Source: Escherichia coli
Lineage (GTDB): Bacteria > Pseudomonadota > Gammaproteobacteria > Enterobacterales > Enterobacteriaceae
Strand: one strand, 5' to 3'
Length of the DNA stretch: 64,000 nucleotides
NCBI RefSeq assembly: GCF_013122565.1
Contig: NZ_CP053258.1
Shown here: positions 30,038 through 64,000 of the stretch, piece after piece
How the letters are laid out: each line of letters opens with the position of its first letter
Numbering within the stretch: the stretch's first letter is position 1
Notes under the pieces: model-generated
What the model was told of the DNA's origin: nothing
Seen by the model: the letters and a program-made list of their open reading frames with translations, nothing else
Databases searched by the model: none
Translations under genes and position numbers: made by a program

Positions 30038-30120
30038 ATAAAAAAACCTGCTGGTGAGGCAGGTTCTTTTATTTACTACAGTGACGCTAACTTGCTGATT
30101 GTGCAACATTTCGTACCAAC
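30038..30120 (-). ncRNA. orzO: candidate OrzO-like antitoxin sRNA, copy 1
   Basis: Minus-strand -10 (TATAAT, plus 30127..30132) and intrinsic terminator (hairpin 30047..30063 with U-tract); its 5' region contains GCAACATTTCGTACCAAC, which matches zorO-1 5' UTR 30271..30288 at 17/18 positions as a direct repeat, so the RNAs are complementary. Ends are approximate. Confidence 0.4.
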
Positions 30121-30644: not shown

Positions 30645-30729
30645 AAATAAAAGAACCTGCTGGTGAGGCAGGTTCTTTTATTTACTACTTTGATGTTAAG
30701 TTACTGATAGTGCAACATGGCATCTCAAC
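30645..30729 (-). ncRNA. orzO: candidate OrzO-like antitoxin sRNA, copy 2
   Basis: Same architecture as copy 1 (terminator hairpin 30656..30672; -10 at plus 30736..30741); pairing segment TGCAACATGGCATCTCAAC differs from copy 1 and matches the zorO-2 UTR (30881..30899) with 2 mismatches. Confidence 0.35.
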
Positions 30730-42865: not shown

Positions 42866-44300
42866 TGCAAATTCCTTTTAATCAAACAGTGATTCAATAT
42901 CGTTAATCAGCTCGCTGGCAGTGATGTCGTCGAGCACGGAGAAGGGATAAACCGATTTGCGCGGCGTCAGTTTGTACAACTGAATGTGCTCAATTTTTTG
43001 GTTATCGCTGATTTCGGTGACGGGCAATCCAACACAGAAGCCGGGTGTCACACTCAGTTCGACGTAGCCATCATCCACAGCTTTATAAAATGAGTAATAG
43101 CCGCCACCATCCAGAACATCGCCCCGTTGCCAGCCTTTATTCATCAGCCCGGCGACGCGCCCACTCGCTGCCTGGCGACCAGCCCAGCGCTGCAAATCGT
43201 TGCTGTTTTTTTCTGAATCAGAGAGCTGAGACCAGGGGCGATCAAGTTGACGGAACGGTGGCAGGAGTTCGTAGTCAGAGAACAGTTGGGCAAATTCAGC
43301 AGCCTGTGGGGCCGGGATTTCCAGCACATGCGGGATACCGATACAGCCCTGCGCAAGGGTTAACGGGTTATCGTGACCGTCGCTAAAACTGCCATCCTCC
43401 GCCACGCGAAAACAGCAAATAAGCTGATTATCAGCGTCATAAATGCCCCACATCAGACGTTGGGTGATATGACGAACCAGGGGATGCTCAACCAGAAACA
43501 GACGGAACTGTTCTGCAGTCCAGCGGCGACGCTGACACATGGCGGCTTCCAGACGCGAAATCTGTTGTGCAGCTACCGTGCGGACATCTTTTTTCAACAA
43601 CTTGTAGCGACTTACCGCTTCCTCAGCCAGAGTTTCATCATCGCTTTTGTTCGGTTTGGGCAGGTCTTTCAGACGGTTGCCGGAAGCATCGCGCACAAAC
43701 GGTTTTAAGGATTCATCAAAGCTGACGGTGAACTGGCGTGGGCCGAAATCCAGCAGCAGCGAACCGTTATCATCCAGACCGAGATCGGGCGCTAACCGGT
43801 CTTCCAGCTCTGCGACAGTGAGCTGGCGGCTTTCGGCAATCTGGGCGATTTTAACTCTTGCCTGATCCTGCAAGGCTTTAAATTTTAGCTTTTGCGCAAT
43901 GCCGTTAAGCTGCATAAGAGCGATATCGCTGCCGATAGCAGCAAGAATATCCAGCCCGACAGTGGCGCGTTTATGCTGGGATTCCCCTGGCCAGGCGCGG
44001 ATGAGCGGGGTGAGTTTGCGGGCGGTGTCATCGTTACCCAGAATCCCCAGCGCGGTAAATGCCCAGTTATCTTTAGCGGAGCCACTGGCAGATTCCCAAC
44101 TGAGGAAGAGATCCCAGGCGAAATCAGCAAGAGACTGCGGAGTACAGGCCTCGATTACCTGTGTAATCCCGGGGTAAAGGGTGGCTTCACGGGGGAAAGA
44201 GAGCATGGTGCACAAGTTCAGGATAGCTGAGTCAGGAAGTGCCTTGCCGTTACTGTGCAGAAGCGGGCGATGCCATACTTCTGGCGAACACCAGGTGGGG
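42866..44300. repeat. about 1.4 kb direct repeat (copy B) spanning the 3' part of paralog 3
   Basis: See copy A. Confidence 0.8.
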
Positions 44301-46618: not shown

Positions 46619-46630
46619 TGCTAAATCCTT

Positions 46631-49600
46631 TTAATCAAACAGTGATTCGATGTCGTTAATCAGCTCGCTGGCGGTGATGTCGTTGAGCACGGAGAAAGTG
46701 GGTGAGGATTGTTTACCATAGCGATCATAAGGGGCGGTGATTTTTACGCTTTCGACAGGCAGCAGGTCGCTATACCCCGTTTCGCCATAAATTAATGAAA
46801 AAGGTTCTGTTTCAAGTTCGAGAGCGCCATAAGGGGTAGATTTGCGCATCGCATAGATGCTGCCGCTTTCTTCCAGACGTTGCCAGCCTCTGCGTTCCAG
46901 CCCGACAATGCGTCCGGCCTGGCAGAGACGTCCGTTCCAGCGTGACAATTCATGGGCATCACGCTCGTTATCCGCAAGGTGGTAACTACCACGATCGAGC
47001 TGTTGGAAAGGGGGAAGCAGTTCGTAATCAATGTATATTTGCCTGAATGCAGCGGCGGATTCAGGGGGGATTTCCAGCACATGCGGAATACCGATGTTTC
47101 CTGCTGGCAGCGTGAATAGCTCATCCTGCGCATCGCTGTAAGTGCTGTCTTCTGCCACACGAAAACAGGTGATAAGGGCGTTTTCATCGTTATAAACCCC
47201 CCATAACAGCCGTCGGGTTAAGTGACGTACCAGCGGATGCTCCACCAGAAACAGGCGGAACTGCTCTGCCGTCCAGCGTCTGCGCTGGCACATAGCCTGC
47301 TCCAGACGATCAATCTGCTGGCTGGCAATGGCGCGCACATCTTTCTTCAATTGTTTAAAGAGGTTAACGGCGTCAGTTGCCAGTGTTTGATCATCGCTCT
47401 GGTTTGGTTTGGGTAAATCTTTCAGGACTTTGCCGTTTGCGTCGCGAACCACGGGTTTCAAGGTTTCGTTAAAACCAACGGTGAATTGACGTGGGCCGAA
47501 ATCAAGTGTCAGCGAGCCATTGCTATCAAGCCCTAAATCTGGAGCCAGGCGGTCTTCCAGTTCAGCCATAGTCAGCCCACGGTTTTCAGCAACTATGTTG
47601 ATTTTCTCGCGGGCATGTTCCTGTAATGCTTTGAATTTAATTTTTCGCGCGATGCCATTAAGCAGCATTAGCGCAACATCGCTGCCAATATCAGCTAATA
47701 CATCCAGCCCGGACACCGCCCGTTTATGCTGGGATTCCCCAGGCCAGGCGCGGATGAGCGGAGTTAATTTACGCGCGGTGTCGTCATTGCCTAAAATCCC
47801 AAGCGAAGTAAATGCCCAGTTTTCTTTTGCTGGGGCACCAGCTTCTGTCCAGGCGGTATACAGATCCCAGCCAAAGTCAGCCAGTGATTCGCGGGTGAAG
47901 GTTTCTCTAATGATATCCAGCCCAGCGTAGGCGGTAATGTCGCGTGGAAAGCTCAACATTGTGCCGAGGTGGCGCATAGCGTCATCTGGCAGAGGCAGGT
48001 TGTTACTTTTAAGCCGAGGTCTGTGCCATAAGGTGAACTGATAAAAGCCGGGCAGTGGGGCGATTTTTGCAGGATATTCTTCCAGTGGGTCGCTATCAAA
48101 TAATGTTGCCAGCGCAGCTAAAACATCAGGTTGATTATATCCTTGGGCGATTTCCTCAATCGTTTCTCGCTGGTTTAAATTCACCAGCAGGCGGAGCGCC
48201 TGGCGGGCACAATCACGATCTTTTCCTTTTTTGCCCAGGGCCACAGGAAGTAGCCCGGCGGCGGCATGGCGCGGATAATCAGTTAGCCAGTTTCGCGCAT
48301 CTTCATAAGACATTTTTTTCTGTAATTGTTGCGCCATCGGTAAGGCCAGTTCACTGACACCGAGGAAAAAGGGGAAGAAGCACAGGCGTCGTGGATCACG
48401 TTGCAGGCAGGTCATAAATGCAGGTATGGCGGCGCTACCAAAAAGTGCCAGAATATTTCCCTCACCAGAGTAGTTATCTTCTTTGACTATCTGGTTAAGA
48501 AAAGAAATGGCCTGTTGACCAGGCAGGTAACAGAGGGCAATAAGATTCCAGCTTTTGTATGCATTGTTATGGTATTGCACAAATTCAGCATTCAATGCTG
48601 GAAAATCGAAGCGTAGCAGGGCATCAACGGCACTTTGTGGCGCCGGAATTTTTTCGTATATTTTTTCTCCGCTCTCCCGCCATTTTTCAAAACCAAGATG
48701 CCACAGTATTTGTTGCTCCGGTGTAAGCGGTATTAAGTGTTTCTCCCAGCTTGCTTTTTTCATCGGTGCCAGGTCGGTAAACAATGTTTGTTTTGTCGCC
48801 TGCTGTTGGGCTATTTGCTGGAAGCGGGTGATAAGGTAAGTACGGGTCAGTTTTTTGGCAATCTCTGGAGTGATATCCGAAACAGAAGGAACTGGGAGCA
48901 CAGGAAGATCAAACACCGGCGTATTTTTCTTTTTCTCTTTGGTCATCCAGGGAGGCGAAACAAACAGCTCTGGCAACATATCCGCAGTGGCATATTCACA
49001 TTCTTCAGCGACTGACTGCGGACGACATTCAGATAAGATGCCAGCGGCTTTGGCATTAACCCAGGGAATGACGTCGCATACTAACTCTGGCGTGATGGTA
49101 ATCAGTTTGATAAGTGCGTTACGCCACTGTGCATCTTCATGTATTGCCAGCAAAGTAGCATAAGCGGCAAGAGCCGCAGCGGGATGTTTTTGACAGGCTT
49201 TGCTTAAGTATTCCAGGTGCTTTTTCTTGCCAATCACACCGAGGATCAGAATTTGAATCGCATCCGGGTGATTCGTTTTCCATAGCCATTTGACAAGATT
49301 TTCAGTCTCGCTGTTGCGCTCGAAAAGATAAGTGGGATTGTCAGAATGCTCTTCCGTAAACTCAAGAAGGATCTGGCTTACACCCCGAATTCCATTATTC
49401 GCCAGCAACATTGCCAGATAAGCGCGAAAATTACGAAAATCACGATACAACGGTGGGAAGTCGTATTTTTCCACTGTACTAAGAGCAGTATCATCGGTTA
49501 TCACCAGTCTTAACCAGGTCATCGCCGGAACGTTTTGGTCTGCATAGCGTAGAGCCATAGCATTGGCAATATCCGGGCGTTCAGGGAGCAGTAACGCCGC

Positions 49601-50437
49601 AAAAGGTTGCCGTGCTGGAGATAGCGAGGGAATAGCCGCGAGTACTTTATCTACACAGCGTTGCCACTCATCTTCTGAAGCGAGTGAAAGATGATGACAT
49701 AGACGTTGATGCCAACTAGGTAGCGATTCTGCTTCGTGATTAGGTGGAATGATGGTGGTTACTGCGCCTTTTACTGGTTTATATCTAAGTTGAATAGCGA
49801 GAAGGGCAATTTCAACGGCGCTTTCCAGACCACAGCGAATGACTAAGTCATCGACCAGTTCATCTGCAGAGTAAGAGTTCCAGAAACTCCAGAGCAATGC
49901 TGCATCAGATTGCGCACTCCCTGTCTGTTGATTACCCTGAACTCGCATTTGTAACTCAGCAAAAGCATGCTGCCAGTTTTCTGGATAAGAACGGTAATTG
50001 TTGTCGGGATCATATGCCCTGGTGTTATCTGCAATACGCTTCCATATCTCACCGTCTTTGCGCAGATAATTGATCTCTCTGGGGCGAGAGCGATGAGGGA
50101 AAGCAAATCGATTAATATCGTCAGTTACCGGAATGACTGCATCATCAGCCAGCCATGGGCGTTTGTTTTTACTCTCAAGGGAAGTTTCAACTTCAGGAGT
50201 GGCTTTGGTGCTGGAGATATGCACGTTTGCTGAAGCATCTTCCACATAGCCTTTTTTCGTTTTCTCTGCGATAAGCTTTAGTTCCGCTTTTGCCGCTGCC
50301 GCAGCATCCGCAAAACTTTTTACCTGGCTTTGCCCTTGGGTGCCAACTTTTCCCCAACTGATATGCAACTCGTTTCCCTGTTGCTCCACCGCCCAGAATT
50401 TATGTGATTTTTCGTCCTGATAGATAAAGCGTCTCAT
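46631..50437 (-). CDS. MolR-like giant protein, paralog 4 (1268 aa)
   Basis: N-terminus MRRFIYQDEKSHKFWAVEQQGNELHISWGKVGTQGQ (WGR); most divergent of the four but retains conserved blocks (TARKLTPLIRAWPGESQHKRA, DYELLPPFQQLDR). Confidence 0.8.
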   Translation of the reverse strand: MRRFIYQDEKSHKFWAVEQQGNELHISWGKVGTQGQSQVKSFADAAAAAKAELKLIAEKTKKGYVEDASANVHISSTKATPEVETSLESKNKRPWLADDAVIPVTDDINRFAFPHRSRPREINYLRKDGEIWKRIADNTRAYDPDNNYRSYPENWQHAFAELQMRVQGNQQTGSAQSDAALLWSFWNSYSADELVDDLVIRCGLESAVEIALLAIQLRYKPVKGAVTTIIPPNHEAESLPSWHQRLCHHLSLASEDEWQRCVDKVLAAIPSLSPARQPFAALLLPERPDIANAMALRYADQNVPAMTWLRLVITDDTALSTVEKYDFPPLYRDFRNFRAYLAMLLANNGIRGVSQILLEFTEEHSDNPTYLFERNSETENLVKWLWKTNHPDAIQILILGVIGKKKHLEYLSKACQKHPAAALAAYATLLAIHEDAQWRNALIKLITITPELVCDVIPWVNAKAAGILSECRPQSVAEECEYATADMLPELFVSPPWMTKEKKKNTPVFDLPVLPVPSVSDITPEIAKKLTRTYLITRFQQIAQQQATKQTLFTDLAPMKKASWEKHLIPLTPEQQILWHLGFEKWRESGEKIYEKIPAPQSAVDALLRFDFPALNAEFVQYHNNAYKSWNLIALCYLPGQQAISFLNQIVKEDNYSGEGNILALFGSAAIPAFMTCLQRDPRRLCFFPFFLGVSELALPMAQQLQKKMSYEDARNWLTDYPRHAAAGLLPVALGKKGKDRDCARQALRLLVNLNQRETIEEIAQGYNQPDVLAALATLFDSDPLEEYPAKIAPLPGFYQFTLWHRPRLKSNNLPLPDDAMRHLGTMLSFPRDITAYAGLDIIRETFTRESLADFGWDLYTAWTEAGAPAKENWAFTSLGILGNDDTARKLTPLIRAWPGESQHKRAVSGLDVLADIGSDVALMLLNGIARKIKFKALQEHAREKINIVAENRGLTMAELEDRLAPDLGLDSNGSLTLDFGPRQFTVGFNETLKPVVRDANGKVLKDLPKPNQSDDQTLATDAVNLFKQLKKDVRAIASQQIDRLEQAMCQRRRWTAEQFRLFLVEHPLVRHLTRRLLWGVYNDENALITCFRVAEDSTYSDAQDELFTLPAGNIGIPHVLEIPPESAAAFRQIYIDYELLPPFQQLDRGSYHLADNERDAHELSRWNGRLCQAGRIVGLERRGWQRLEESGSIYAMRKSTPYGALELETEPFSLIYGETGYSDLLPVESVKITAPYDRYGKQSSPTFSVLNDITASELINDIESLFD

Positions 50438-50539
50438 TCTGCATCCCTGTAATTTTATCCAGTTGAATGCAGATGCTACCAGTATTTATGCGGGTTAGAG
50501 AGAGACAAAATCGCAAGAAAACAACTTTAGGAATTTATA

Positions 50540-50566
50540 AAGAAAAGGCGCTGTCGATGCAGCGCC
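50540..50566 (-). terminator. intrinsic terminator of metG (stem GGCGCTG/CAGCGCC, U-tract on minus strand)
   Basis: Inverted repeat 50547..50553 / 50560..50566 with AGAAAA (plus) giving UUUUCU downstream on the minus strand, 12 nt after the metG stop. Confidence 0.55.
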
Positions 50567-50577
50567 TTGAAGGGGGA

Positions 50578-52611
50578 TTATTTCACCTGATGACCCGGTT
50601 TAGCACCGGCATCCGGGCTTAGCAGGAAGATATCTTTCCCGCCAGGACCAGCAGCCATTACCATGCCTTCGGAGATACCAAAGCGCATTTTACGCGGCGC
50701 CAGGTTAGCCACCATAATGGTGTGACGACCAATCAGAGCCTGCGGATCCGGGTAAGCAGAACGAATGCCGGAGAAAACATTACGTTTTTCACCGCCGAGA
50801 TCCAGTGTCAGTCGCAGCAGTTTGTCAGAACCTTCAACAAACTCTGCATTTTCAATCAGCGCCACGCGCAGGTCAACTTTAGCGAAGTCGTCAAAGGTGA
50901 TGGTTTCCTGAATCGGATCGTCTGCCAGCGGGCCAGTAACTGGCGCGGCAGCTGCTTTCACTTCTTCTTTAGAGGCTTCCACCAGTGCTTCAACCTGCTT
51001 CATATCGATGCGGTTATACAGCGCCTTGAACGGATTCACTTTGTGGCCCAGCAGCGGTTGCTGGATACCATCCCAGGTCAGTTCCGTATTGAGGAATGCT
51101 TCTGCACGCTCGGTCAGTTTCGGCAGTACCGGCTTCAGGTAAGTCATCAGCACGCGGAACAGGTTTATGCCCATTGAGCAAATTGCCTGCAGGTCGGCAT
51201 CGCGGCCTTCCTGTTTCGCCACAACCCACGGAGCCTGTTCATCGACATAGCGGTTAGCCAGATCAGCCAGCGCCATGATTTCGCGCACGGCTTTACCAAA
51301 TTCGCGGCTTTCCCACGCTTCACCAATCACTTCAGCGGCATCAGTGAAGGTTTTGTACAACTGCGGGTCAGCCAGTTCGCTTGCCAGCACACCGTCAAAA
51401 CGCTTGTTGATAAAGCCCGCATTACGAGAGGCCAGGTTAACCACTTTGTTAACGATATCGGCATTCACGCGCTGAACGAAATCTTCCAGGTTGAGATCGA
51501 TATCATCAATGCGCGAAGAGAGTTTCGCAGTGTAGTAGTAACGCAGGCTGTCAGCGTCAAAATGATTCAGCCAGGTGCTGGCTTTAATAAAGGTACCGCG
51601 AGACTTAGACATCTTCGCGCCGTTCACCGTCACATAGCCATGAACAAACAGGTTGGTCGGCTTGCGGAAGTTGCTGCCTTCCAGCATTGCTGGCCAGAAC
51701 AGACTGTGGAAGTAAACAATATCTTTACCGATGAAGTGGTACAGCTCGGCGGTGGAGTCTTTCTTCCAGTATTCATCGAAGCTTACGCTGTCGCCGCGCT
51801 TGTCGCACAGATTCTTGAAAGAACCCATATAGCCAATCGGCGCATCTAGCCAGACGTAGAAATATTTACCCGGCGCGTTCGGAATTTCAAAACCGAAGTA
51901 CGGCGCGTCGCGGGAGATATCCCACTGTTGCAGGCCGGATTCAAACCACTCCTGCATTTTATTTGCCACCTGCTCCTGCAACGCACCGCTGCGGGTCCAT
52001 GCCTGCAACATTTCGCTGAAAGAGGGCAGATCAAAGAAGAAGTGTTCAGAATCACGCATTACCGGCGTAGCGCCAGAAACCACCGATTTCGGCTCGATCA
52101 ATTCAGTCGGGCTGTAGGTCGCGCCGCAAACTTCGCAGTTATCGCCGTATTGATCCGGGGATTTACATTTCGGGCAGGTGCCTTTCACAAAACGGTCCGG
52201 CAGGAACATGCCTTTTTCCGGATCGTACAGCTGAGAGATGGTGCGGTTTTTAATAAAACCGTTTTCTTTCAAGCGAGTATAGATAAGCTCAGACAACTGG
52301 CGGTTCTCTTCGCTGTGCGTCGAGTGATAGTTGTCATAGCTGATGTTAAAGCCTGCGAAATCAGTCTGATGCTCCTGACTCATTTCGCCAATCATCTGCT
52401 CCGGGGTGATACCAAGCTGCTGAGCTTTCAGCATGATCGGTGTACCGTGGGCATCGTCGGCGCAGATGAAGTTGACCTCGTGGCCGCGCATTCGCTGGTA
52501 ACGGACCCAGACATCAGCCTGGATGTGCTCCAGCATATGGCCGAGGTGGATTGAGCCGTTAGCGTACGGCAGTGCGCACGTCACCAGAATTTTCTTCGCG
52601 ACTTGAGTCAT
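50578..52611 (-). CDS. metG: methionyl-tRNA synthetase, 677 aa
   Basis: HIGH-region ([14 protein letters not shown]), KMSKS motif, Zn knuckle CPKC...CEVC; start ATG 52611..52609. Confidence 0.95.
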
Positions 52612-52742
52612 AGTAGGCATTACTTCTTAATAGTGAAAAGGGGTTAGATAGTACCAAATGGGAAAATGTTAAGTAAGTACTTCTCTATATTCTTCAGGTA
52701 AACTATCAGCTGATGGTTTATCTATACAAAAAAGGAGTCGGG

Positions 52743-53852
52743 ATGAACGAACAATCCCAGGCCAAATCACCAGAAGCCTTGCGCGCAATGGTCGCCGGGA
52801 CACTGGCCAATTTTCAGCACCCAACCCTGAAGCATAACCTCACCACGCTGAAAGCGTTGCACCATGTCGCCTGGATGGACGACACGTTGCATGTGGAACT
52901 GGTTATGCCATTCGTCTGGCATAGCGCGTTTGAAGAGTTAAAAGAGCAATGTAGCGCCGAACTGCTGCGTATCACCGGGGCGAAAGCTATCGACTGGAAA
53001 CTGTCGCACAATATCGCCACCTTAAAACGCGTGAAGAATCAGCCGGGTATTAATGGCGTGAAGAACATCATTGCGGTCAGTTCCGGTAAAGGCGGCGTGG
53101 GTAAATCCTCCACGGCGGTAAACCTGGCGCTGGCACTGGCGGCGGAAGGGGCGAAAGTCGGCATTCTGGACGCCGATATCTACGGCCCATCAATTCCCAC
53201 CATGCTGGGCGCAGAAAATCAGCGTCCAACTTCGCCGGACGGTACCCATATGGCACCGATTATGTCTCATGGCCTGGCAACCAATTCAATTGGTTATCTG
53301 GTTACTGACGACAATGCGATGGTGTGGCGTGGACCGATGGCGAGCAAGGCGTTAATGCAGATGTTGCAGGAAACCTTGTGGCCGGATCTCGACTATCTGG
53401 TGCTTGATATGCCGCCAGGCACCGGTGACATTCAGCTGACGCTGGCGCAGAACATTCCGGTGACTGGTGCGGTAGTGGTCACCACCCCGCAGGACATCGC
53501 GCTGATCGATGCGAAAAAAGGCATTGTGATGTTCGAGAAAGTCGAAGTTCCGGTGCTCGGTATTGTCGAGAACATGAGTGTGCATATTTGCAGTAACTGT
53601 GGTCACCATGAACCGATTTTCGGTACCGGTGGTGCAGAGAAACTGGCTGAAAAATACCATACACAGCTGCTGGGGCAGATGCCGTTACACATCTCCTTAC
53701 GTGAGGATCTCGATAAAGGCACGCCAACGGTTATCAGCCGTCCGGAGAGCGAATTTACCGCTATCTACCGCCAGCTGGCTGACCGCGTTGCAGCTCAGCT
53801 CTACTGGCAGGGTGAAGTCATTCCAGGCGAGATTTCCTTCCGCGCGGTCTAA
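52743..53852 (+). CDS. apbC: Fe-S cluster carrier ATPase ApbC/Mrp, 369 aa
   Basis: Deviant Walker A GKGGVGKSS and CxxC (CSNCGHH) seen; start ATG 52743. Confidence 0.9.
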   Translation: MNEQSQAKSPEALRAMVAGTLANFQHPTLKHNLTTLKALHHVAWMDDTLHVELVMPFVWHSAFEELKEQCSAELLRITGAKAIDWKLSHNIATLKRVKNQPGINGVKNIIAVSSGKGGVGKSSTAVNLALALAAEGAKVGILDADIYGPSIPTMLGAENQRPTSPDGTHMAPIMSHGLATNSIGYLVTDDNAMVWRGPMASKALMQMLQETLWPDLDYLVLDMPPGTGDIQLTLAQNIPVTGAVVVTTPQDIALIDAKKGIVMFEKVEVPVLGIVENMSVHICSNCGHHEPIFGTGGAEKLAEKYHTQLLGQMPLHISLREDLDKGTPTVISRPESEFTAIYRQLADRVAAQLYWQGEVIPGEISFRAV

Positions 53853-54114
53853 CGCCTATTAACCATTCTGGTTATTCTTCATACACCGCAGAGATGTTAC
53901 ATTGATGCGGTGTATTTGTTTTTGCCGCATTAATGAACACTTATTTAATACTGCGAATATTCTGCGGACCTTCGTCCGAAACTCTACAAAGTCGATTGAT
54001 CATACAGGCAATGCGTCATTATCATCCTTCGTGGCTGTGTAGTGGATGTACAGCTATAGTTTGTTATGCACTCATTCTATCCAGGCATAACCTTTACTAC
54101 AGGGATAACGTTCA

Positions 54115-54396
54115 ATGAATAAGTATTGGCTGTCAGGAATTATTTTTCTTGCCTATGGATTGGCTTCTCCCGCATTCTCTTCAGAGACTGCCACATTAGC
54201 GATTAATGGCAGGATCAGTCCCCCAACATGCAGTATGGCTATGGTTAATGGTCAACCTCAACAGCATTGTGGTCAGTTAACGTATAATGTTGACACCCGT
54301 CATCTGTTTTCTTCGCCCGTCAAAGGTGTAACGACAGAAGTGGTTGTTGCAGGTAGCGATAGCAAACGTCGAATCGTGTTAAATCGCTACGATTAA
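54115..54396 (+). CDS. yehE: small secreted protein YehE (DUF2574), 93 aa
   Basis: Signal peptide MNKYWLSGIIFLAYGLASPAFS; position upstream of the yehDCBA fimbrial genes. Confidence 0.7.
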   Translation: MNKYWLSGIIFLAYGLASPAFSSETATLAINGRISPPTCSMAMVNGQPQQHCGQLTYNVDTRHLFSSPVKGVTTEVVVAGSDSKRRIVLNRYD

Positions 54397-54688
54397 TTTG
54401 GCAACCTGATTTTAATTGCATTTAGAAAGCCGAAATCATTTATATAAATGATCTCGGCTTTTTTATTGATATCAACAATACCATTTACATAAATCTACAT
54501 TAATTGATAGATGCGATAAATAGTTAATACTCTTAAATATTTGTTGTATTTATATTGCAATGGTTAATTTGTTTTAAATCAATAAAACAATATGTTTACA
54601 TTGCGGCAACTTTTTTGATGTGAGAAATTTGTTTCCAAGAGATACAGACTATTAACAACCAAAAATAAATTTTATTAAGGAACATATT

Positions 54689-55231
54689 ATGAAACGTTCA
54701 ATTATTGCTGCCGCTGTCTTTTCTTCTTTTTTTATGAGCGCTGGAGTATTTGCTGCAGACGTTGATACCGGAACATTAACTATTAAGGGGAATATTGCAG
54801 AATCTCCGTGTAAATTCGAAGCGGGTGGTGATTCAGTAAGTATTAATATGCCAACTGTACCAACCACTGTCTTTGAAGGTAAAGCTAAATATTCTACCTA
54901 TGATGATGCAGTCGGTGTAACCAGTAGCATGTTAAAAATTAGCTGCCCGAAAGAAGTTGCTGGTGTAAAACTCTCGTTGATTACCAACGATAAAATAACT
55001 GGTAACGATAAGGCGATAGCCAGTAGCAACGATACTGTGGGTTACTATCTCTATTTAGGTGATAACAGCGAAGTCCTGGATGTTTCTGCACCTTTTAACA
55101 TTGAGAGTTATAAAACAGCGGAAGGTCAATATGCTATTCCGTTTAAAGCAAAATACCTGAAACTGACAGATAGCTCAGTGAATTCAGGTGATGTGTTATC
55201 TTCTCTGGTTATGCGTGTGGCGCAGGATTAA
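54689..55231 (+). CDS. yehD: fimbrial major subunit-like protein YehD, 180 aa
   Basis: Signal peptide plus conserved Cys pair and pilin-like C-terminal beta-strand; first gene of a chaperone-usher cluster. Confidence 0.8.
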   Translation: MKRSIIAAAVFSSFFMSAGVFAADVDTGTLTIKGNIAESPCKFEAGGDSVSINMPTVPTTVFEGKAKYSTYDDAVGVTSSMLKISCPKEVAGVKLSLITNDKITGNDKAIASSNDTVGYYLYLGDNSEVLDVSAPFNIESYKTAEGQYAIPFKAKYLKLTDSSVNSGDVLSSLVMRVAQD

Positions 55232-55310
55232 TAAATAAAATTGTAAGTTTCTCCAGGTAATAAACATGGCCGCTATCCCATGGCGGCCTTTTAATTTAAG
55301 AGGCATTAAA

Positions 55311-55985
55311 ATGAAAGGATTATTATCTTTACTCATTTTTTCTATGGTCCTTCCTGCACATGCCGGAATTGTTATCTACGGGACGCGCATTATTTACCCG
55401 GCAGAAAATAAAGAAGTGATGGTGCAGTTGATGAACCAGGGAAACCGTTCTTCGCTGCTGCAGGCGTGGATTGATGATGGCGATACGTCATTACCACCAG
55501 AAAAAATTCAGGTTCCTTTCATGTTAACGCCACCAGTGGCAAAAATAGGGGCAAATTCCGGGCAGCAAGTAAAAATCAAAATTATGCCGAATAAACTGCC
55601 CACTAATAAAGAAAGCATTTTTTATCTGAATGTTCTGGATATTCCACCAAATAGTCCAGAGCAAGAAGGTAAGAATGCACTGAAGTTTGCGATGCAAAAC
55701 AGAATTAAGTTGTTTTACCGGCCAGCGGGTATTGCTCCGGTAAATAAAGCGACATTTAAAAAATTGCTGGTAAATCGCAGTGGCAATGGTTTGGTGATAA
55801 AAAATGACTCAGCTAATTGGGTGACGATTTCGGATGTCAAAGCTAATAATGTCAAAGTCAATTATGAAACTATTATGATTGCCCCCTTAGAAAGTCAGAG
55901 TGTTAATGTCAAAAGTAATAATGCAAATAACTGGTATCTGACCATTATCGATGACCACGGCAACTATATTAGTGACAAAATTTAA
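55311..55985 (+). CDS. yehC: periplasmic fimbrial chaperone YehC (PapD-like)
   Basis: Start chosen at ATG 55311 (signal peptide MKGLLSLLIFSMVLPAHA, GAGG SD); ORF track allows an upstream start at 55266 (239 aa). PapD-like motifs (RIIYP, KLFYRP). Confidence 0.8.
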   Translation: MKGLLSLLIFSMVLPAHAGIVIYGTRIIYPAENKEVMVQLMNQGNRSSLLQAWIDDGDTSLPPEKIQVPFMLTPPVAKIGANSGQQVKIKIMPNKLPTNKESIFYLNVLDIPPNSPEQEGKNALKFAMQNRIKLFYRPAGIAPVNKATFKKLLVNRSGNGLVIKNDSANWVTISDVKANNVKVNYETIMIAPLESQSVNVKSNNANNWYLTIIDDHGNYISDKI

Positions 55986-56000
55986 TTGCAGGAGCTGCCT

Positions 56001-58481
56001 ATGTTGAGAATGACCCCACTTGCATCAGCAATCGTAGCGTTATTGCTCGGCATTGAAGCTTATGCAGCTGAAGAAACCTTTGATACCCATTTTATGATAG
56101 GTGGAATGAAAGACCAGCAGGTTGCAAATATTCGTCTTGATGATAATCAACCCTTGCCGGGGCAGTATGACATCGATATTTATGTCAATAAACAATGGCG
56201 CGGGAAATATGAGATCATTGTTAAAGACAACCCGCAAGAAACATGTTTATCAAGGGAAATTATCAAGCGGTTAGGCATTAACACCGATAACTTCGCCAGT
56301 GGAAAGCAATGTTTAACATTTGAGCAACTTGTTCAGGGCGGGAGTTATACCTGGGATATCGGAGTTTTTCGTCTCGATTTCAGTGTCCCGCAGGCCTGGG
56401 TGGAAGAACTGGAAAGTGGCTATGTTCCACCGGAAAACTGGGAGCGGGGTATTAATGCGTTTTATACCTCTTATTATGTGAGTCAGTATTACAGTGACTA
56501 TAAAGCGTCGGGTAATAGTAAGAGTACATATGTACGTTTTAACAGCGGGTTAAATTTACTGGGGTGGCAACTGCATTCTGATGCCAGTTTCAGTAAAACA
56601 AATAACAATCCAGGGGTGTGGAAAAGCAATACCCTGTATCTGGAACGTGGATTTGCCCAACTTCTCGGCACGCTTCGCGTGGGTGATATGTACACATCAA
56701 GCGATATTTTTGATTCTGTTCGCTTCAGCGGTGTGCGGTTGTTTCGTGATATGCAGATGTTGCCTAACTCGAAACAAAATTTTACGCCACGGGTGCAGGG
56801 GATTGCTCAGAGTAACGCGCTGGTAACTATTGAACAGAATGGTTTTGTGGTTTATCAGAAAGAGGTTCCTCCTGGCCCGTTTGCGATTACAGATTTGCAG
56901 TTGGCCGGTGGTGGAGCAGATCTTGATGTCAGCGTGAAAGAGGCGGACGGCTCGGTTACCACCTATCTGGTGCCTTATGCAGCGGTGCCAAATATGCTGC
57001 AACCTGGCGTATCGAAATATGATTTTGCGGCGGGTCGTAGCCATATTGAAGGGGCAAGCAAACAAAGTGATTTTATCCAGGTGGGTTATCAGTATGGTTT
57101 TAATAATTTATTGACGCTGTATGGTGGCTCGATGGTCGCGAATAATTACTACGCGTTCACTTTGGGGACTGGCTGGAATACACGCATTGGTGCCATTTCC
57201 GTCGATGCCACGAAGTCGCATAGTAAACAAGACAACGGCGATGTGTTTGACGGGCAAAGTTATCAAATTGCTTACAACAAATTTGTGAGCCAAACGTCGA
57301 CACGTTTTGGTCTGGCGGCCTGGCGTTATTCGTCGCGTGATTACCGGACATTTAATGATCACGTTTGGGCAAACAATAAAGATAATTATCGCCGTGATGA
57401 AAACGATATCTATGACATTGCCGATTATTACCAGAACGATTTTGGCCGTAAAAATAGCTTTTCTGCCAATATGAGCCAGTCATTGCCAGAAGGCTGGGGT
57501 TCTGTGTCGTTAAGTACGTTATGGCGAGATTACTGGGGACGTAGCGGCAGCAGTAAGGATTATCAGTTGAGTTATTCCAACAACCTGCGACGGATAAGCT
57601 ATACCCTCTCGGCAAGCCAGGCTTATGACGAGAATCATCATGAAGAGAAACGATTTAATATTTTTATATCGATTCCCTTTGATTGGGGTGATGACGTTAC
57701 GACGCCTCGTCGGCAAATATATATGTCTAACTCAACGACGTTTGATGATCAAGGTTTTGCCTCAAATAATACGGGATTATCAGGAACCGTTGGAAGCCGG
57801 GATCAGTTTAACTATGGGGTCAACCTGAGTTATCAGCATCAGGGAAATGAAACGACAGCTGGAGCTAATTTGACCTGGAATGCGCCGGTTGCGACAGTGA
57901 ATGGCAGTTATAGTCAGTCGAGTACTTATCGACAGGCTGGAGCCAGGGTTTCAGGGGGCATTGTCGCCTGGTCGGGTGGCGTTAATCTGGCGAACCGTCT
58001 TTCCGAAACGTTTGCTGTGATGAATGCACCTGGCATTAAAGATGCTTATGTCAATGGGCAAAAATATCGCACAACAAACCGTAATGGAGTGGTGGTATAC
58101 GACGGAATGACACCTTATCGGGAAAATCACCTGATGCTGGATGTGTCGCAAAGCGATAGCGAAGCAGAATTACGTGGCAACCGGAAAATTGCCGCCCCTT
58201 ATCGCGGCGCGGTTGTACTGGTTAATTTTGATACCGATCAGCGCAAGCCATGGTTTATAAAAGCGTTAAGAGCAGATGGGCAACCATTAACGTTTGGTTA
58301 TGAAGTCAATGATATCCATGGTCATAATATTGGCGTTGTCGGCCAGGGAAGTCAGTTATTTATTCGCACCAATGAAGTACCGCCATCGGTTAATGTGGCA
58401 ATTGATAAGCAACAAGGACTTTCATGCACAATCACCTTCGGTAAAGAGATTGATGAAAGTAGAAATTATATCTGTCGGTGA
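56001..58481 (+). CDS. yehB: outer-membrane fimbrial usher YehB, 826 aa
   Basis: Start ATG 56001 (MLRMTPLASAIVALLLGIEAYA); usher-family length and beta-rich sequence. Confidence 0.85.
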   Translation: MLRMTPLASAIVALLLGIEAYAAEETFDTHFMIGGMKDQQVANIRLDDNQPLPGQYDIDIYVNKQWRGKYEIIVKDNPQETCLSREIIKRLGINTDNFASGKQCLTFEQLVQGGSYTWDIGVFRLDFSVPQAWVEELESGYVPPENWERGINAFYTSYYVSQYYSDYKASGNSKSTYVRFNSGLNLLGWQLHSDASFSKTNNNPGVWKSNTLYLERGFAQLLGTLRVGDMYTSSDIFDSVRFSGVRLFRDMQMLPNSKQNFTPRVQGIAQSNALVTIEQNGFVVYQKEVPPGPFAITDLQLAGGGADLDVSVKEADGSVTTYLVPYAAVPNMLQPGVSKYDFAAGRSHIEGASKQSDFIQVGYQYGFNNLLTLYGGSMVANNYYAFTLGTGWNTRIGAISVDATKSHSKQDNGDVFDGQSYQIAYNKFVSQTSTRFGLAAWRYSSRDYRTFNDHVWANNKDNYRRDENDIYDIADYYQNDFGRKNSFSANMSQSLPEGWGSVSLSTLWRDYWGRSGSSKDYQLSYSNNLRRISYTLSASQAYDENHHEEKRFNIFISIPFDWGDDVTTPRRQIYMSNSTTFDDQGFASNNTGLSGTVGSRDQFNYGVNLSYQHQGNETTAGANLTWNAPVATVNGSYSQSSTYRQAGARVSGGIVAWSGGVNLANRLSETFAVMNAPGIKDAYVNGQKYRTTNRNGVVVYDGMTPYRENHLMLDVSQSDSEAELRGNRKIAAPYRGAVVLVNFDTDQRKPWFIKALRADGQPLTFGYEVNDIHGHNIGVVGQGSQLFIRTNEVPPSVNVAIDKQQGLSCTITFGKEIDESRNYICR

Positions 58482-58491
58482 GAGGTGGAAT

Positions 58492-59526
58492 ATGATGTTC
58501 AGAAATGGAATGTTACTAATATTTATTTTATGGGCTAATTTTACCTGGGCTGGATGTCGTACCACTGCATCATTAAATATTACTGATAGTATTAATGTGG
58601 GGGAGATTTTAGCGAATGAGGTTTCCTTTAGTAAAAATGTCGTGTTTACTGGGATATCTTGTGATACGAGCACGGATAAAATAGTTTATAAAAATATCCA
58701 AAGTGATTGGGTTGAAGTTGGGCCTTTTGGTAATGGCGAAAAATTAAAGGTTAAAATAGATTCTTTAGGTAAAAACAGTGAGACGATTGGGAAATCCAGC
58801 AATGCGCAGGCAGAATTACCCTATGTGGTTAAAATTGCCAGAGGTACACTTGATTTTACTGGAGAAAGAAAACCAACCTGGTTTCTTTCAGATACTGTGA
58901 TTGCAAATATTGGCGGTGAGTCATCTACATCTATCGACTTTTGGTTGGGAATTTGTAAGACATTGAAGATTAACTGGTGTGTAAGTTATCTCACCAGTAA
59001 ACTGGCGGGGGATACATTTACGCTTGGGTTAAGTATTTCCTATTATCCTAAAAATACGACCTGTAAGCCTGAAAACACAATAATAAAAGTAGATGATATT
59101 GCCTTGTCCCAGCTCAGAAGTCAGGGAAAGATTACGGCGAACAGTAAGGAAGGAATAATTTCGTTGAAATGTGATAATCTTTTCGGCGACAAAAACCAAG
59201 CATCGAGGAATATGGTCGTATATCTTTCCAGCAGTGACTTAGTTACAGGAAGCAATACAATTTTGCGTGGCAACATAGATAATGGTGTAGGATTTGTGTT
59301 GGATCTAAAAGAACCACCAAAAGGAACTGAAGCTGCCATCAAAATTTCTGCTAGCGGCAATCAGGGCGCGGCGACATCATTATGGAAAACAGATAAACCA
59401 GGGGCTTCTTTAAATAGCAATATTATTAATATACCAGTTATGGCCAGTTACTACGTCTACGATACAAACAAAGTTAAATCTGGCGCACTGGAGGCAACCG
59501 CATTAATCAACGTGAAATACGACTAA
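58492..59526 (+). CDS. yehA: fimbrial adhesin-like protein YehA, 344 aa
   Basis: Start ATG 58492 with GAGG SD; signal peptide MMFRNGMLLIFILWANFTWA; longer overlapping ORF in track rejected. Confidence 0.8.
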   Translation: MMFRNGMLLIFILWANFTWAGCRTTASLNITDSINVGEILANEVSFSKNVVFTGISCDTSTDKIVYKNIQSDWVEVGPFGNGEKLKVKIDSLGKNSETIGKSSNAQAELPYVVKIARGTLDFTGERKPTWFLSDTVIANIGGESSTSIDFWLGICKTLKINWCVSYLTSKLAGDTFTLGLSISYYPKNTTCKPENTIIKVDDIALSQLRSQGKITANSKEGIISLKCDNLFGDKNQASRNMVVYLSSSDLVTGSNTILRGNIDNGVGFVLDLKEPPKGTEAAIKISASGNQGAATSLWKTDKPGASLNSNIINIPVMASYYVYDTNKVKSGALEATALINVKYD

Positions 59527-59582
59527 TAACAAGCAAGACGAGCAAGTGGCTAATAATAAAAAATAACAAGGTGTCTGCATTT

Positions 59583-59609
59583 CCCCCTCATGATGAGGGG
59601 GCTTTTTTT
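59583..59609 (+). terminator. intrinsic terminator after yehA (CCCCCTCAT/ATGAGGGGG + T7)
   Basis: Inverted repeat and U-tract read directly; overlaps the rcnB stop codon on the opposite strand. Confidence 0.6.
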
Positions 59610-59946
59610 AGCGATGATAAAAAATCTCACCGTCGTAGGCTTTAATGATTTTACCGTCGGTGTCGCTGATCAACACGTACGCGCCACCCATATAGGTCCA
59701 GTGCGTCCCGGCATCAGGCGCGGGCAGGTTACGTAACTGCCACTGCTTAATGTTGTACTCATCGGTGCGGTACATCTCTGGGACGGTATCGCCTGGTTTG
59801 AAATGCTTAAAGTCAGCAATGAAACTGCTTAACTCATACTTGGAAATTCCCGAGGTATTGGTCGAACCCGCGGTGGCTGGTGCGGCCCAGGCGGCACTGG
59901 TAACCAGCAAAAGCGCACCCAGCAACATCTTATTTTTAATGGTCAT
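59608..59946 (-). CDS. rcnB: periplasmic Ni/Co homeostasis protein RcnB (YohN), 112 aa
   Basis: Start ATG 59946..59944 (MTIKNKMLLGALLLVTSAAWA signal peptide); ORF-track upstream extension rejected. Confidence 0.85.
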   Translation of the reverse strand: MTIKNKMLLGALLLVTSAAWAAPATAGSTNTSGISKYELSSFIADFKHFKPGDTVPEMYRTDEYNIKQWQLRNLPAPDAGTHWTYMGGAYVLISDTDGKIIKAYDGEIFYHR

Positions 59947-60164
59947 AAACTCTCCACTTTGGGGATCTGTAATATCAGTCGCATATCTTTCCTGCCATAC
60001 AATATAACTGACAAGCGATATTTTGTTAGTGATCCCATGATTTCGTAAAAAGTGTAAATGAAAGGATGCCCTAAAAGCATCCTTAGCGAGCAGAGAGTCA
60101 GCGGAAATAGCTGATTTAAGAATCATCCTGGGCTGAAGATAACATGCAAGCCTAAAGGATTGAG

Positions 60165-60989
60165 TTATCGCATTATGCCCATGAAGCCATGTACGCCCAT
60201 ATACACACCAACTAAGCCAATCAACAGACTGGAAAAATAGGGGGCGCGTTTAGCGAGAGTGTTAAATCCGCTCCAGCGTTTTGCGACCTGCTGAACGCTG
60301 ATTGCTGCGCCAACGCCTACGGTGACAAGCGTTAACGCCAGGCCAATGCTAAAACTTACGACCAGTGTTGCGCCCAGTGTCAGGGCTTTCAACTGAATGC
60401 AAATCAACAGCACGGTAATTGCTGCCGGGCAGGGGATAAGGCCACCGGTTAAGCCAAATAACAAAATTTGCCAGTTGGTGACCTCTCTACCATCAAAGCG
60501 TCGTTTAATGTCATTAGCATGGGCTCGTGCATGAGCATCCTGATACTCGCCATGTTCGTGATGGTGATGATGCCCATGGTCGTGGTGATCTTCGTGATCG
60601 TGGTGATGATGTTCATGATCATGCTCGTGCATATTCTCCAGCCAGTTGCGTTCGCCGCGCCAGGTACGCCAGAACATCCAGAACGCGGTGCCAATAATGA
60701 TCACTGCAGAAATCAACTGGAGCCACGGTTCTGCAGATTGAGCAGTAAAGCGTTTGCTGATCACCATCCCGCCAAAGGCAATCAACCAGACCACCGCGGT
60801 ATGCGAAATGGTTGCTGCCAGTCCGAGCATCACCGCCTGTTTAATGGTGCCTTTGATGGCGATGATAAACGCCGCCATCATCGTTTTTGAGTGCCCTGGT
60901 TCCAGGCCATGAAGCGCACCAAGTAAGATGGCGCTGGGGATGAAGAACCAGGCGTTTCCTTGCTGAAGAAGAGTTGTAAATTCGGTCAT
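60165..60989 (-). CDS. rcnA: nickel/cobalt efflux protein RcnA, 274 aa
   Basis: Membrane protein with His-rich loop HEHDHEHHHHDHEDHHDHGHHHHHEHGE seen. Confidence 0.9.
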   Translation of the reverse strand: MTEFTTLLQQGNAWFFIPSAILLGALHGLEPGHSKTMMAAFIIAIKGTIKQAVMLGLAATISHTAVVWLIAFGGMVISKRFTAQSAEPWLQLISAVIIIGTAFWMFWRTWRGERNWLENMHEHDHEHHHHDHEDHHDHGHHHHHEHGEYQDAHARAHANDIKRRFDGREVTNWQILLFGLTGGLIPCPAAITVLLICIQLKALTLGATLVVSFSIGLALTLVTVGVGAAISVQQVAKRWSGFNTLAKRAPYFSSLLIGLVGVYMGVHGFMGIMR

Positions 60990-61026
60990 GATAATAATTC
61001 TTAGTATTAATTCGGCAATCTGATTC

Positions 61027-61061
61027 TACTCCCCCCCAGTACCTGATACTACCCCCCAGTA
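61027..61061. promoter_or_regulatory. two tandem RcnR operator sites (TACT-C7-AGTA and TACT-AC6-AGTA) in the rcnA-rcnR divergent intergenic region
   Basis: Sequence TACTCCCCCCCAGTA (61027..61041) and TACTACCCCCCAGTA (61047..61061) read directly; matches the published TACT-G6-N-AGTA RcnR site on the opposite strand. Confidence 0.65.
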
Positions 61062-61109
61062 GATTAATAGTGCTATGATTTTTCATGTTCTTGTTAACCA
61101 GGTGTTGCC

Positions 61110-61382
61110 ATGTCTCATACAATCCGTGATAAACAGAAACTGAAAGCGCGTGCCAGTAAGATTCAGGGCCAGGTCGTGGCGCTCAAGAAAATGCTCGACG
61201 AACCGCATGAATGCGCTGCAGTTTTACAACAGATTGCTGCTATCCGTGGCGCGGTAAACGGTCTGATGCGGGAAGTGATTAAAGGTCATCTGACGGAACA
61301 CATCGTTCACCAGGGGGATGAGCTAAAACGTGAAGAAGATCTGGATGTCGTTCTGAAGGTGCTGGATTCTTATATCAAATAA
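61110..61382 (+). CDS. rcnR: Ni/Co-responsive transcriptional repressor RcnR, 90 aa
   Basis: 90-aa CsoR/RcnR-family ORF ([21 protein letters not shown]...). Confidence 0.9.
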
Positions 61383-61477
61383 TTTATTAACGCGATTGTA
61401 AAACTGCCGTTTTTCCTCGTTTACAACGCGTGCGCTGGACATTACCATCCTCCTCTGCGATTTATCATCGCAACCAA

Positions 61478-61598
61478 ACGACTCGGGGTGCCCTTCTGCG
61501 TGAAGGCTGAGAAATACCCGTATCACCTGATCTGGATAATGCCAGCGTAGGGAAGTCACGGACCACCAGGTCATTGCTTCTTCACGTTATGGCAGGAG
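61478..61598 (+). promoter_or_regulatory. TPP riboswitch (thi-box) in the thiM leader
   Basis: Contains GGGGTGCCCTTCTGCGTGAAGGCTGAGAAATACCCGTATCACCTGATCTGGATAATGCCAGCGTAGGGAA, the classic E. coli thiM aptamer, followed by the SD-sequestering platform ahead of ATG 61605. Confidence 0.85.
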
Positions 61599-61604
61599 CA
61601 AACT

Positions 61605-62393
61605 ATGCAAGTCGACCTGCTGAGTTCCGCGCAATCTGCGCACACGTTACACCTTTTTCACCAACATTCCCCTCTTGTGCACTGCATGACCAACGATGTG
61701 GTGCAAACCTTTACTGCCAATACCTTGCTGGCGCTCGGTGCATCGCCAGCGATGGTTATCGAAACCGAAGAGGCCAGTCAGTTTGCGGCTATTGCTAGTG
61801 CCTTGCTGATTAACGTTGGCACGCTGACGCAGCCACGCGCACAGTCGATGTGTGCCGCCGTTGAGCAAGCAAAAAGCTCTCAAACACCCTGGACGCTTGA
61901 TCCAGTAGCGGTGGGTGCACTCGATTATCGCCGCCGTTTTTGTCTGGAACTTCTGTCTCATAAGCCAACCGCCATACGTGGTAATGCTTCGGAAATCATG
62001 GCATTAGCTGGCATTGCTAATGGCGGACGGGGAGTGGATACCACTGACGCCGCAGCTAACGCGATACCCGCTGCACAAACACTGGCACGGGAAACTGGCG
62101 CAATCGTCGTGGTCACTGGCGAGATGGATTATGTTACCGATGGACATCGTATCATTGGTATTCACGGTGGCGATCCGTTAATGACCAAAGTGGTAGGAAC
62201 TGGCTGTGCATTATCGGCGGTTGTCGCTGCCTGCTGTGCGTTACCAGGCGATACGCTGGAAAATGTCGCATCTGCCTGTCACTGGATGAAACAAGCCGGA
62301 GAACGCGCAGTCGTCAGAAGCGAGGGGCCAGGCAGTTTTGTTCCACATTTCCTTGATGCGCTCTGGCAATTGACGCAGGAGGTGCAGGCATGA
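61605..62393 (+). CDS. thiM: hydroxyethylthiazole kinase, 262 aa
   Basis: ThiM-family sequence; stop overlaps thiD start (ATGA). Confidence 0.9.
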
Positions 62394-63190
62394 AACGAAT
62401 TAACGCTCTGACGATTGCCGGTACTGATCCGAGTGGTGGTGCGGGGATTCAGGCCGATCTTAAAACCTTCTCGGCACTTGGCGCTTATGGTTGCTCAGTT
62501 ATTACTGCACTGGTGGCGCAAAATACCCGTGGCGTACAGTCGGTGTATCGCATTGAGCCTGATTTTGTCGCCGCCCAGCTCGATTCGGTGTTCAGCGATG
62601 TGCGAATCGACACCACTAAAATCGGTATGTTGGCGGAAACCGATATTGTTGAAGCGGTGGCAGAACGGTTGCAACGTTATCAGATCCAAAACGTGGTACT
62701 CGACACCGTTATGCTGGCAAAAAGCGGCGACCCGCTGCTTTCACCTTCGGCGGTTGCTACGCTGCGCAGTCGATTATTGCCACAGGTTTCATTAATAACG
62801 CCAAACTTGCCCGAAGCTGCTGCCTTGCTCGACGCGCCACACGCGCGCAACGAACAGGAAATGCTGGAACAAGGGCGATCGCTGTTGGCGATGGGCTGTG
62901 GCGCAGTGCTAATGAAAGGTGGTCATCTGGATGATGAACAAAGCCCGGACTGGCTGTTTACTCGTGAGGGAGAACAACGATTTACTGCACCGCGCATTAT
63001 GACCAAAAACACCCACGGCACTGGTTGTACGCTCTCTGCGGCGTTGGCTGCACTACGCCCGCGCCATACAAACTGGGCTGACACCGTACAGGAGGCAAAA
63101 AGCTGGCTTTCATCGGCGTTAGCCCAGGCCGACACGCTGGAAGTTGGTCACGGTATTGGTCCGGTTCACCACTTCCACGCCTGGTGGTGA
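62390..63190 (+). CDS. thiD: hydroxymethylpyrimidine / phosphomethylpyrimidine kinase, 266 aa
   Basis: Ribokinase-like motifs [16 protein letters not shown] and anion hole GTGC seen. Confidence 0.9.
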
Positions 63191-63245
63191 GCACCGTACT
63201 ATAGCTGCTTTGGTTATTGTCAGTCTTTGGCGCTGACATTCAGGG

Positions 63246-64000
63246 ATGAAACCAATGCAGCTAAGAATTACCAGTCGAAAAAAACTCACCGCTCTATTAT
63301 GCGCTCTTGGGCTAATTTCCATCGTTGCAATTTATCCGCGTCAGACGGTGAATTTTTTCTATTCGACAGCAGTTCAGATTACAGACTACATCCACTTCTA
63401 CGGTTATCGCCCGGTTAAATCTTTCGCTATTCGTATTCCTGCCAGTTACACCATTCACGGAATAGATGTTTCGCGCTGGCAGGAGCGGATCGACTGGCAG
63501 CGGGTGGCAAAAATGCGCGATAACGGTATCCGCTTACAATTTACCTTTATCAAGGCGACGGAAGGCGAAAAGCTGGTGGACCCCTATTTTTCGCGTAACT
63601 GGCAACTAAGCCGCGAAAATGGCCTGCTGCGCGGGGCGTATCATTATTTCTCCCCGTCGGTATCCGCTTCAGTTCAGGCGCGATTATTTCTGCAAACGGT
63701 GGATTTCTCACAAGGCGATTTACCTGCCGTGCTGGATGTAGAAGAACGGGGAAAATTATCGGCAAAAGAATTACGCAAGCGGGTAAGTCAGTGGCTAAAA
63801 ATGGTCGAAAAAAGTACGGGAAAAAAGCCGATTATTTACTCAGGAGCCGTTTTTTATCACACCAATCTGGCGGGCTATTTCAATGAATATCCGTGGTGGG
63901 TGGCTCACTACTATCAACGTCGTCCGGACAATGACGGCATGGCCTGGCGCTTCTGGCAGCATTCCGACCGTGGACAGGTAGATGGCATCAATGGTCCGGT
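63246..64000 (+). CDS. yegX: GH25 (lysozyme-like) family protein, N-terminal part; continues past window end
   Basis: Open frame from ATG 63246 (or 63255) to the window edge; TM/signal segment then GH25-like region (IDVSRWQ...FTFIKATEG...GAYHYF). Not in ORF track because it has no stop in the window. Confidence 0.6.
   Translation, partial: MKPMQLRITSRKKLTALLCALGLISIVAIYPRQTVNFFYSTAVQITDYIHFYGYRPVKSFAIRIPASYTIHGIDVSRWQERIDWQRVAKMRDNGIRLQFTFIKATEGEKLVDPYFSRNWQLSRENGLLRGAYHYFSPSVSASVQARLFLQTVDFSQGDLPAVLDVEERGKLSAKELRKRVSQWLKMVEKSTGKKPIIYSGAVFYHTNLAGYFNEYPWWVAHYYQRRPDNDGMAWRFWQHSDRGQVDGINGP

Follow-up and report, generated by a model that had tools for sequence, protein, structure and literature searches.

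The two C-rich repeats that fill positions 61027 to 61061 of the window, by which we mean the whole 64-kb stretch of Escherichia coli DNA analysed here, are almost certainly (probability about 0.96) the already known RcnR operator pair, a tandem of type 1 sites shared by the promoters of rcnA(B) and rcnR. E. coli K-12 has exactly the same 35-bp element, and it is on the K-12 element that the binding of RcnR has been shown in published work: the metal-free protein binds the DNA, and Ni(II) or Co(II) releases it. The RcnR protein encoded in the window is likewise 100% identical to the K-12 protein (WP_000019944.1). Since both the operator and the repressor are identical to those of K-12, electrophoretic mobility shift and footprinting experiments have already been carried out on precisely this DNA and this protein. 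The characterisation of the K-12 rcnA-rcnR operator is reportedly due to Iwig and Chivers, in 2009, and to Blaha et al., in 2011. Nothing in the present analysis contradicts the reading of the element as an RcnR operator.

Sequence and genomic setting of the operator pair

The element lies in the 120-bp intergenic region between the divergently transcribed genes rcnA and rcnR. The genes and sites to which we refer throughout the text are the following, with positions counted along the window.

59608-59946, minus strand: rcnB, accessory gene downstream of rcnA (Pfam RcnB PF11776, E = 7e-19; RefSeq rcnB)
60165-60989, minus strand: rcnA, Ni/Co efflux pump of 274 aa with a His-rich loop, the regulated target (Pfam NicO PF03824, E = 6e-70; RefSeq rcnA)
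60990-61109: intergenic region of 120 bp
61027-61041: RcnR operator site 1, reading TACTCCCCCCCAGTA on the plus strand and TACTGGGGGGGAGTA on the minus strand, which is the rcnA sense strand (motif match, K-12 identity)
61042-61046: 5-bp spacer CCTGA between sites 1 and 2, conserved in length and not in sequence
61047-61061: RcnR operator site 2, reading TACTACCCCCCAGTA on the plus strand and TACTGGGGGGTAGTA on the minus strand (motif match, K-12 identity)
61110-61382, plus strand: rcnR, 90-aa repressor of the CsoR/RcnR family (Pfam Trns_repr_metal PF02583, E = 3.5e-21)

Read directly from the plus strand of the window, the order is ATTC, TACTCCCCCCCAGTA, CCTGA, TACTACCCCCCAGTA and GATTAATAGTGCTATGAT, so that the two sites with their spacer occupy 61027-61061 exactly. 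Each site carries seven bases between its TACT and AGTA arms and contains a single unbroken tract of six or seven C residues. The central tract is asymmetric, with the C residues on the plus strand in both sites, and the palindromy is limited to the 4-bp arms; because the C-tract is on the same strand in both cases, the two sites form a direct repeat of a single asymmetric unit. The distance from the start of site 1 to the start of site 2 is 20 bp, approximately two helical turns, from which we infer that both sites are in the same helical phase; the placement of the two RcnR sites on a common DNA face has been stated in the literature (PMC5146963).

The initial annotation had described the element as two TACT-(C6-7)-AGTA palindromes spaced 20 bp apart in the divergent region between rcnA and rcnR, and had related them to the known RcnR pattern. 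The placement is confirmed, as both sites are inside 60990-61109 and are flanked by Pfam-supported rcnA and rcnR genes, and so is the match to the pattern, as described below. The remaining terms need some refinement. Two sites of the general form are indeed present, but site 2 is TACT-A-C6-AGTA and not TACT-C6-AGTA; the word palindrome applies to the 4-bp arms and not to the asymmetric C-tract between them; and the value of 20 bp is correct as a start-to-start distance, whereas the actual gap between the sites is the 5 bp of 61042-61046.

The published RcnR motif, TACT-G6-N-AGTA, is written as TACTGGGGGGNAGTA in a paper that has Iwig and Chivers among its authors (PMC5146963). This motif matches sites 1 and 2 on the minus strand with no mismatches, and none of 100 shuffled versions of the window contained any match. 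When up to two mismatches were allowed, no additional site was found anywhere in the 64-kb window. The loose pattern TACT-N7-AGTA also has two matches in the 64 kb, which are sites 1 and 2 only; 0.29 matches are expected, and two or more were obtained in 3 of 100 shuffles, a result that is modestly unusual when taken alone.

The comparison of the intergenic region with that of K-12 MG1655 reveals a single difference across the 120 bp, at position 61087 (G here, A in K-12), which is outside both sites and coincides with the nucleotide mapped as the rcnR transcription start. The two systems share the 35-bp tandem, the RcnR protein, the gene order rcnB-rcnA <> rcnR-thiM and the intergenic length. 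The residues His3, Glu34, Cys35, Glu63 and His64, which together with the N-terminus make up the Ni/Co ligand set of RcnR (PMC7055735), are all present in the translation of the rcnR gene of the window. Reviews describe RcnR as the regulator of RcnAB, that is, with rcnB regulated together with rcnA. Of 5426 complete E. coli genomes queried with 181 bp of this region, 5361 have the matching stretch annotated by RefSeq as rcnA and rcnR.

Some features of the neighbourhood vary within the species. RcnA, which is 274 aa long here as in K-12, has 281 aa in an O157 strain and 267 aa in a further one, and the change in length is probably located in the His-rich loop. Downstream of rcnR, thiM is preceded by a TPP riboswitch at 61474-61570 on the plus strand (Rfam RF00059, 71 bits), upstream of thiM-thiD and in the same RefSeq position in other strains; in the O157 strain, a gene for an outer membrane protein replaces the riboswitch and thiM. 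The rcn locus as a whole is 98.5% identical to that of K-12. The best match for 44000-64000 among the 5426 complete E. coli genomes is approximately 97% identical over the 20 kb, and 758 genomes cover at least 80% of it; the region appears to be mosaic or variable, and the strain has no close representative in that collection.

Other elements were recorded elsewhere in the window. The presence of two copies of the OrzO-P antitoxin sRNA on the minus strand, at 30040-30113 and 30649-30722 (Rfam RF02083, 89-90 bits), suggests that a zor-orz type I toxin-antitoxin locus is duplicated here. A Peptidase-S11 RNA motif (RF03039) at 9394-9474 and two naRNA4 elements (RF02564) at 10417-10494 and 10516-10593, all on the plus strand, reached the Rfam gathering score.

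Position relative to the divergent promoters

The transcription start sites, which had been derived by experiment, were taken from Table S1 of Kim et al. 2012 (PMC3415461), which describes K-12 and not this strain, and in which the read counts for these starts are low (11, 12 and 25). The 50-nt upstream string of the main rcnA start maps exactly onto the window. The second rcnA start was placed by the length of its 5' UTR only, because its upstream string spans the difference at 61087. The resulting positions, with the promoter elements that we assign to them from geometry, are listed here.

61016, minus strand: main rcnA transcription start (K-12 TSS 2183912, 5' UTR of 27 nt, 25 reads)
61023-61028, minus strand: putative -10 hexamer TAGAAT of the main rcnA promoter, at -12 to -7 from the start at 61016
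61037, minus strand: second, weaker rcnA transcription start, inside the G-tract of site 1 (K-12 TSS 2183891, 5' UTR of 48 nt, 12 reads)
61071-61079, plus strand: putative extended -10 element TGcTATGAT of the rcnR promoter, with TATGAT at -13 to -8 from the start at 61087
61087, plus strand: rcnR transcription start (K-12 TSS 2183841, 5' UTR of 23 nt, 11 reads)

According to these coordinates, site 1 runs from -25 to -11 and site 2 from -45 to -31 relative to the main rcnA start; relative to the rcnR start, the corresponding ranges are -60 to -46 and -40 to -26. On the main rcnA promoter the two sites jointly occupy -45 to -11 and reach into the -10 hexamer, as TAGAAT shares two base pairs (61027-61028) with the AGTA arm of site 1; on the rcnR promoter they extend from -60 to -26, with site 2 located over the -35 region. 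Both putative -10 elements are conserved in other species: a ATTCTACT block is maintained at the rcnA -10 element, and at the rcnR -10 element the TGnTA...T columns are at least 80% conserved, with TGCTATAAT in many other species. A consensus promoter scan had proposed other hexamers, namely TTGCCG-16-TATTAT, whose end lies 1 bp before the ATG of rcnA, and TTAACC-18-TACAAT, which overlaps the ATG of rcnR. Neither pair is compatible with the published starts at 61016, 61037 and 61087, and both were rejected for this reason.

From the position of the sites relative to the start sites, it follows that two bound tetramers would occlude both divergent core promoters, in agreement with the published account, in which rcnA and rcnR are repressed through one shared operator. 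In the mechanism that we propose, one RcnR tetramer would occupy each TACT-G6-N-AGTA site when metal is absent, a stoichiometry that comes from the literature. Published work indicates that the unbroken G/C tract confers a partial A-form character on the DNA, that the contacts of RcnR are made at the TACT/AGTA arms and that the DNA flanking the sites may be wrapped; RcnR would accordingly read both the arms and the unusual, partly A-form shape of the tract. Judging from the geometry, RNA polymerase would then be kept off both the rcnA and the rcnR promoters. The binding of Ni(II) or Co(II) to RcnR would lower its affinity for DNA, as reported in the literature and as quantified for the Salmonella protein, in which metal weakens DNA binding 90-fold or more (PMC5709419). 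Release by the metal would turn on the efflux genes rcnA-rcnB and would also derepress rcnR itself, in a form of autoregulation.

Conservation and natural variation of the operator

For the cross-species comparison, a scan with one genome per species yielded 80 loci encoding an RcnR that is 76-100% identical to that of the window. The loci come from many genera of the Enterobacterales, among them Escherichia, Citrobacter, Salmonella, Raoultella, Kosakonia, Rahnella, Hafnia, Erwinia, Edwardsiella and Morganella, and from one Vibrio, and they are related to one another, so that the counts given below are not independent events. A divergent rcnA homologue is present in all loci but one, which ends at a contig edge. 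Two TACT-N7-AGTA sites are found just upstream of rcnR in 66 of the 80 loci. When only strict sites, TACT-N-C6-AGTA, are counted, 56 loci retain a pair, which in every case is TACTCCCCCCCAGTA and then TACTACCCCCCAGTA, with a spacing of 20 bp in 55 of them and of 21 bp in the remaining one. In the rest of these loci, amounting to 392 kb, no strict site occurs and the loose pattern is found four times.

The alignment of 80 unique upstream sequences (the window and 79 loci), in which identity is scored to the window base, gives a mean identity of 0.96 for the sites, 0.39 for the 5-bp spacer and 0.52 for the remaining intergenic region. Because the three values come from one alignment, the difference between the sites and their surroundings cannot be attributed to shared ancestry. 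Site 1 is nearly invariant and is identical in all 56 loci with two strict sites; site 2 varies more and tolerates interruptions, as in TACTATCCCCCAGTA and TACTACCACCCAGTA.

The operator of the window is the standard form and not a variant, and the five sampled E. coli loci other than that of strain EC590 have an identical operator. Several departures from this form were observed. Site 1 has six C residues rather than seven in E. coli EC590 and in Citrobacter sp. R56, and eight in Enterobacter sp. R1 and in one Morganella locus (L081); the tract of site 2 is shortened to A+C5 in locus L028 and lengthened to C7 in locus L040. These variants in tract length could be real alleles or homopolymer sequencing errors. 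A single site, together with an intergenic region that is exactly 20 bp shorter, is found in Enterobacter sp. CC120223-11, Erwinia psidii and Edwardsiella anguillarum, as if one repeat unit had been lost or had never been duplicated. In the Morganella loci (L079-L083), site 1 is kept and site 2 is present as a decayed remnant. It is conceivable, and in our opinion rather unlikely, that the C6 and C8 tracts, the interrupted forms of site 2 and the single-site forms constitute a functional allelic series that resets the induction threshold for nickel and cobalt by lineage, in which the tandem and single forms could interconvert by unit-length recombination.

Two further loci have rearrangements at the operator. 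In E. coli ETEC4085 (NZ_CP122634.1, 2194-2999), a transposase gene of the IS5 family interrupts the stretch from the rcnA start codon to the operator, at the equivalent of approximately position 61004 of the window; the insertion cuts rcnA off from its promoter and from the RcnR sites, which rcnR retains. In Escherichia whittamii Sa2BVA5, a deletion of approximately 140 bp, corresponding to about 60957-61095 of the window, has eliminated both RcnR sites together with the two promoters and the 5' end of rcnA, and the rcnA coding sequence now abuts the rcnR ATG directly. This deletion is internal to its contig, and its junction has an ambiguous overlap of approximately 11 bp with similar GTTNCC motifs.

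More distant homologues show how the arrangement changes as the repressor diverges. An rcnR-rcnA copy on an IncHI2 plasmid, whose RcnR is 92% identical, has an identical site pair with the 20-bp spacing. The rcnR-rcnA locus of Ralstonia, with a homologue that is 62% identical, has a single site, TACTCCCCCCTAGTA, of the form TACT-C6-T-AGTA. The Halomonas homologue (58%) has two degenerate sites, TACTGCCCCCTATTA and TACTATCCTCCAGTA, and is located upstream of the CDF transporter gene dmeF rather than divergent from an RcnA-type pump. Along this series, the sites become fewer and their tracts less pure.

Alternative explanations and significance

The arrangement of the element as a repeat raises the question of whether it arose by chance or by a neutral 20-bp tandem duplication with no regulatory role. 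The units 61027-61046 and 61047-61066 agree at 16 of 20 positions, which is what a duplication would give, and the loose pattern reaches two or more matches in 3 of 100 shuffles. However, the specific RcnR motif was absent from all 100 shuffles, the pair is found at a fixed spacing in many genera and on plasmids, and the binding of RcnR to it has been published. A neutral duplication would be expected to decay evenly across sites and spacer; because a contrast of 96% against 39% is observed inside the same supposed unit, this origin is effectively refuted, and we regard it as extremely improbable. The C-tracts might also be seen as phase-variable homopolymers in which slipped-strand mispairing alters the promoter spacing and switches rcnA or rcnR on and off, and the variants in tract length described above (EC590, R56, R1, L081, L028 and L040) would be compatible with such a behaviour. 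We nevertheless consider this very unlikely because tracts of six to seven bases are short for a phase-variable element and those seen here hardly differ in length between loci: site 1 has C7 in 56 of 56 loci with two strict sites, the 20-bp spacing is kept in 55 of 56, and the E. coli operators sampled other than that of EC590 are all the same. The isolated variants, moreover, could reflect sequencing errors in homopolymers.

Repressors of the same family provide the closest points of comparison with the RcnR operator. The FrmR sites in the E. coli frmRAB promoter also consist of a tandem of G/C tracts with AT-rich inverted arms, located over the core promoter; they differ in having ATAC/GTAT arms around a 9-bp GC-rich tract, and FrmR senses formaldehyde rather than Ni/Co. 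The type 2 operators of CsoR (for example in Streptomyces lividans, M. tuberculosis and B. subtilis) are bound by proteins of the same fold and consist of G-tract pseudopalindromes with a GTA dyad, recognised in part through DNA shape; they differ in having two short interrupted G/C tracts, approximately 11 bp between the arms, two tetramers per site and Cu(I) as the inducer. The element of the window was assigned to neither class, as its arms are TACT/AGTA with a 7-base centre, and each site has one unbroken C6-C7 tract with 7 bp between the arms.

These relationships bear on whether the sites could serve mainly another regulator, such as the paralogue FrmR, which also uses tandem type 1 sites, or Fur. 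A Fur-box-like 19-mer is indeed located nearby, at 60984-61008, and RcnRA is connected with iron homeostasis in the title of Koch et al. 2007. The FrmR sites, however, have 9-bp GC tracts flanked by ATAC/GTAT and not by TACT/AGTA, the Fur-like sequence is outside 61027-61061 and would be an additional site rather than an alternative one, and the motif travels with rcnR across species and plasmids; we therefore give almost no credence to a main role for another regulator. Considered in its own right, the Fur-box-like sequence, which extends over the start codon and 5' UTR of rcnA, agrees with GATAATGATAATCATTATC at 14 of 19 positions on both strands, and only 10 positions in the window, counting both strands, score equally well or better. 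Finally, the 4-bp inverted arms around a 7-base centre in each site could suggest a hairpin, a cruciform or an RNA structure that acts as such. The segment 61015-61075, however, folds at only -2.8 kcal/mol (z = -1.0), a value equalled or surpassed by 31 of 200 shuffles; no Rfam family matches at the operator, and most of the element is upstream of the main start sites. A structural role is accordingly of negligible probability, and the RcnR operator pair is the reading that we retain.

The element adds no new biology, as it is already described in the literature. Its value is that of a positive control, a real regulatory site that can be recognised from the DNA sequence alone, and the RcnR operator has already been reused in engineered cobalt-inducible circuits. 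The comparison across species gives, as a modest by-product, a picture of the operator family in which site 1 is near-invariant and site 2 looser, the 20-bp phasing is fixed, and some lineages have a single site. For the organism, the operator is the cis-element that gives rcnA-rcnB and rcnR their response to nickel and cobalt.
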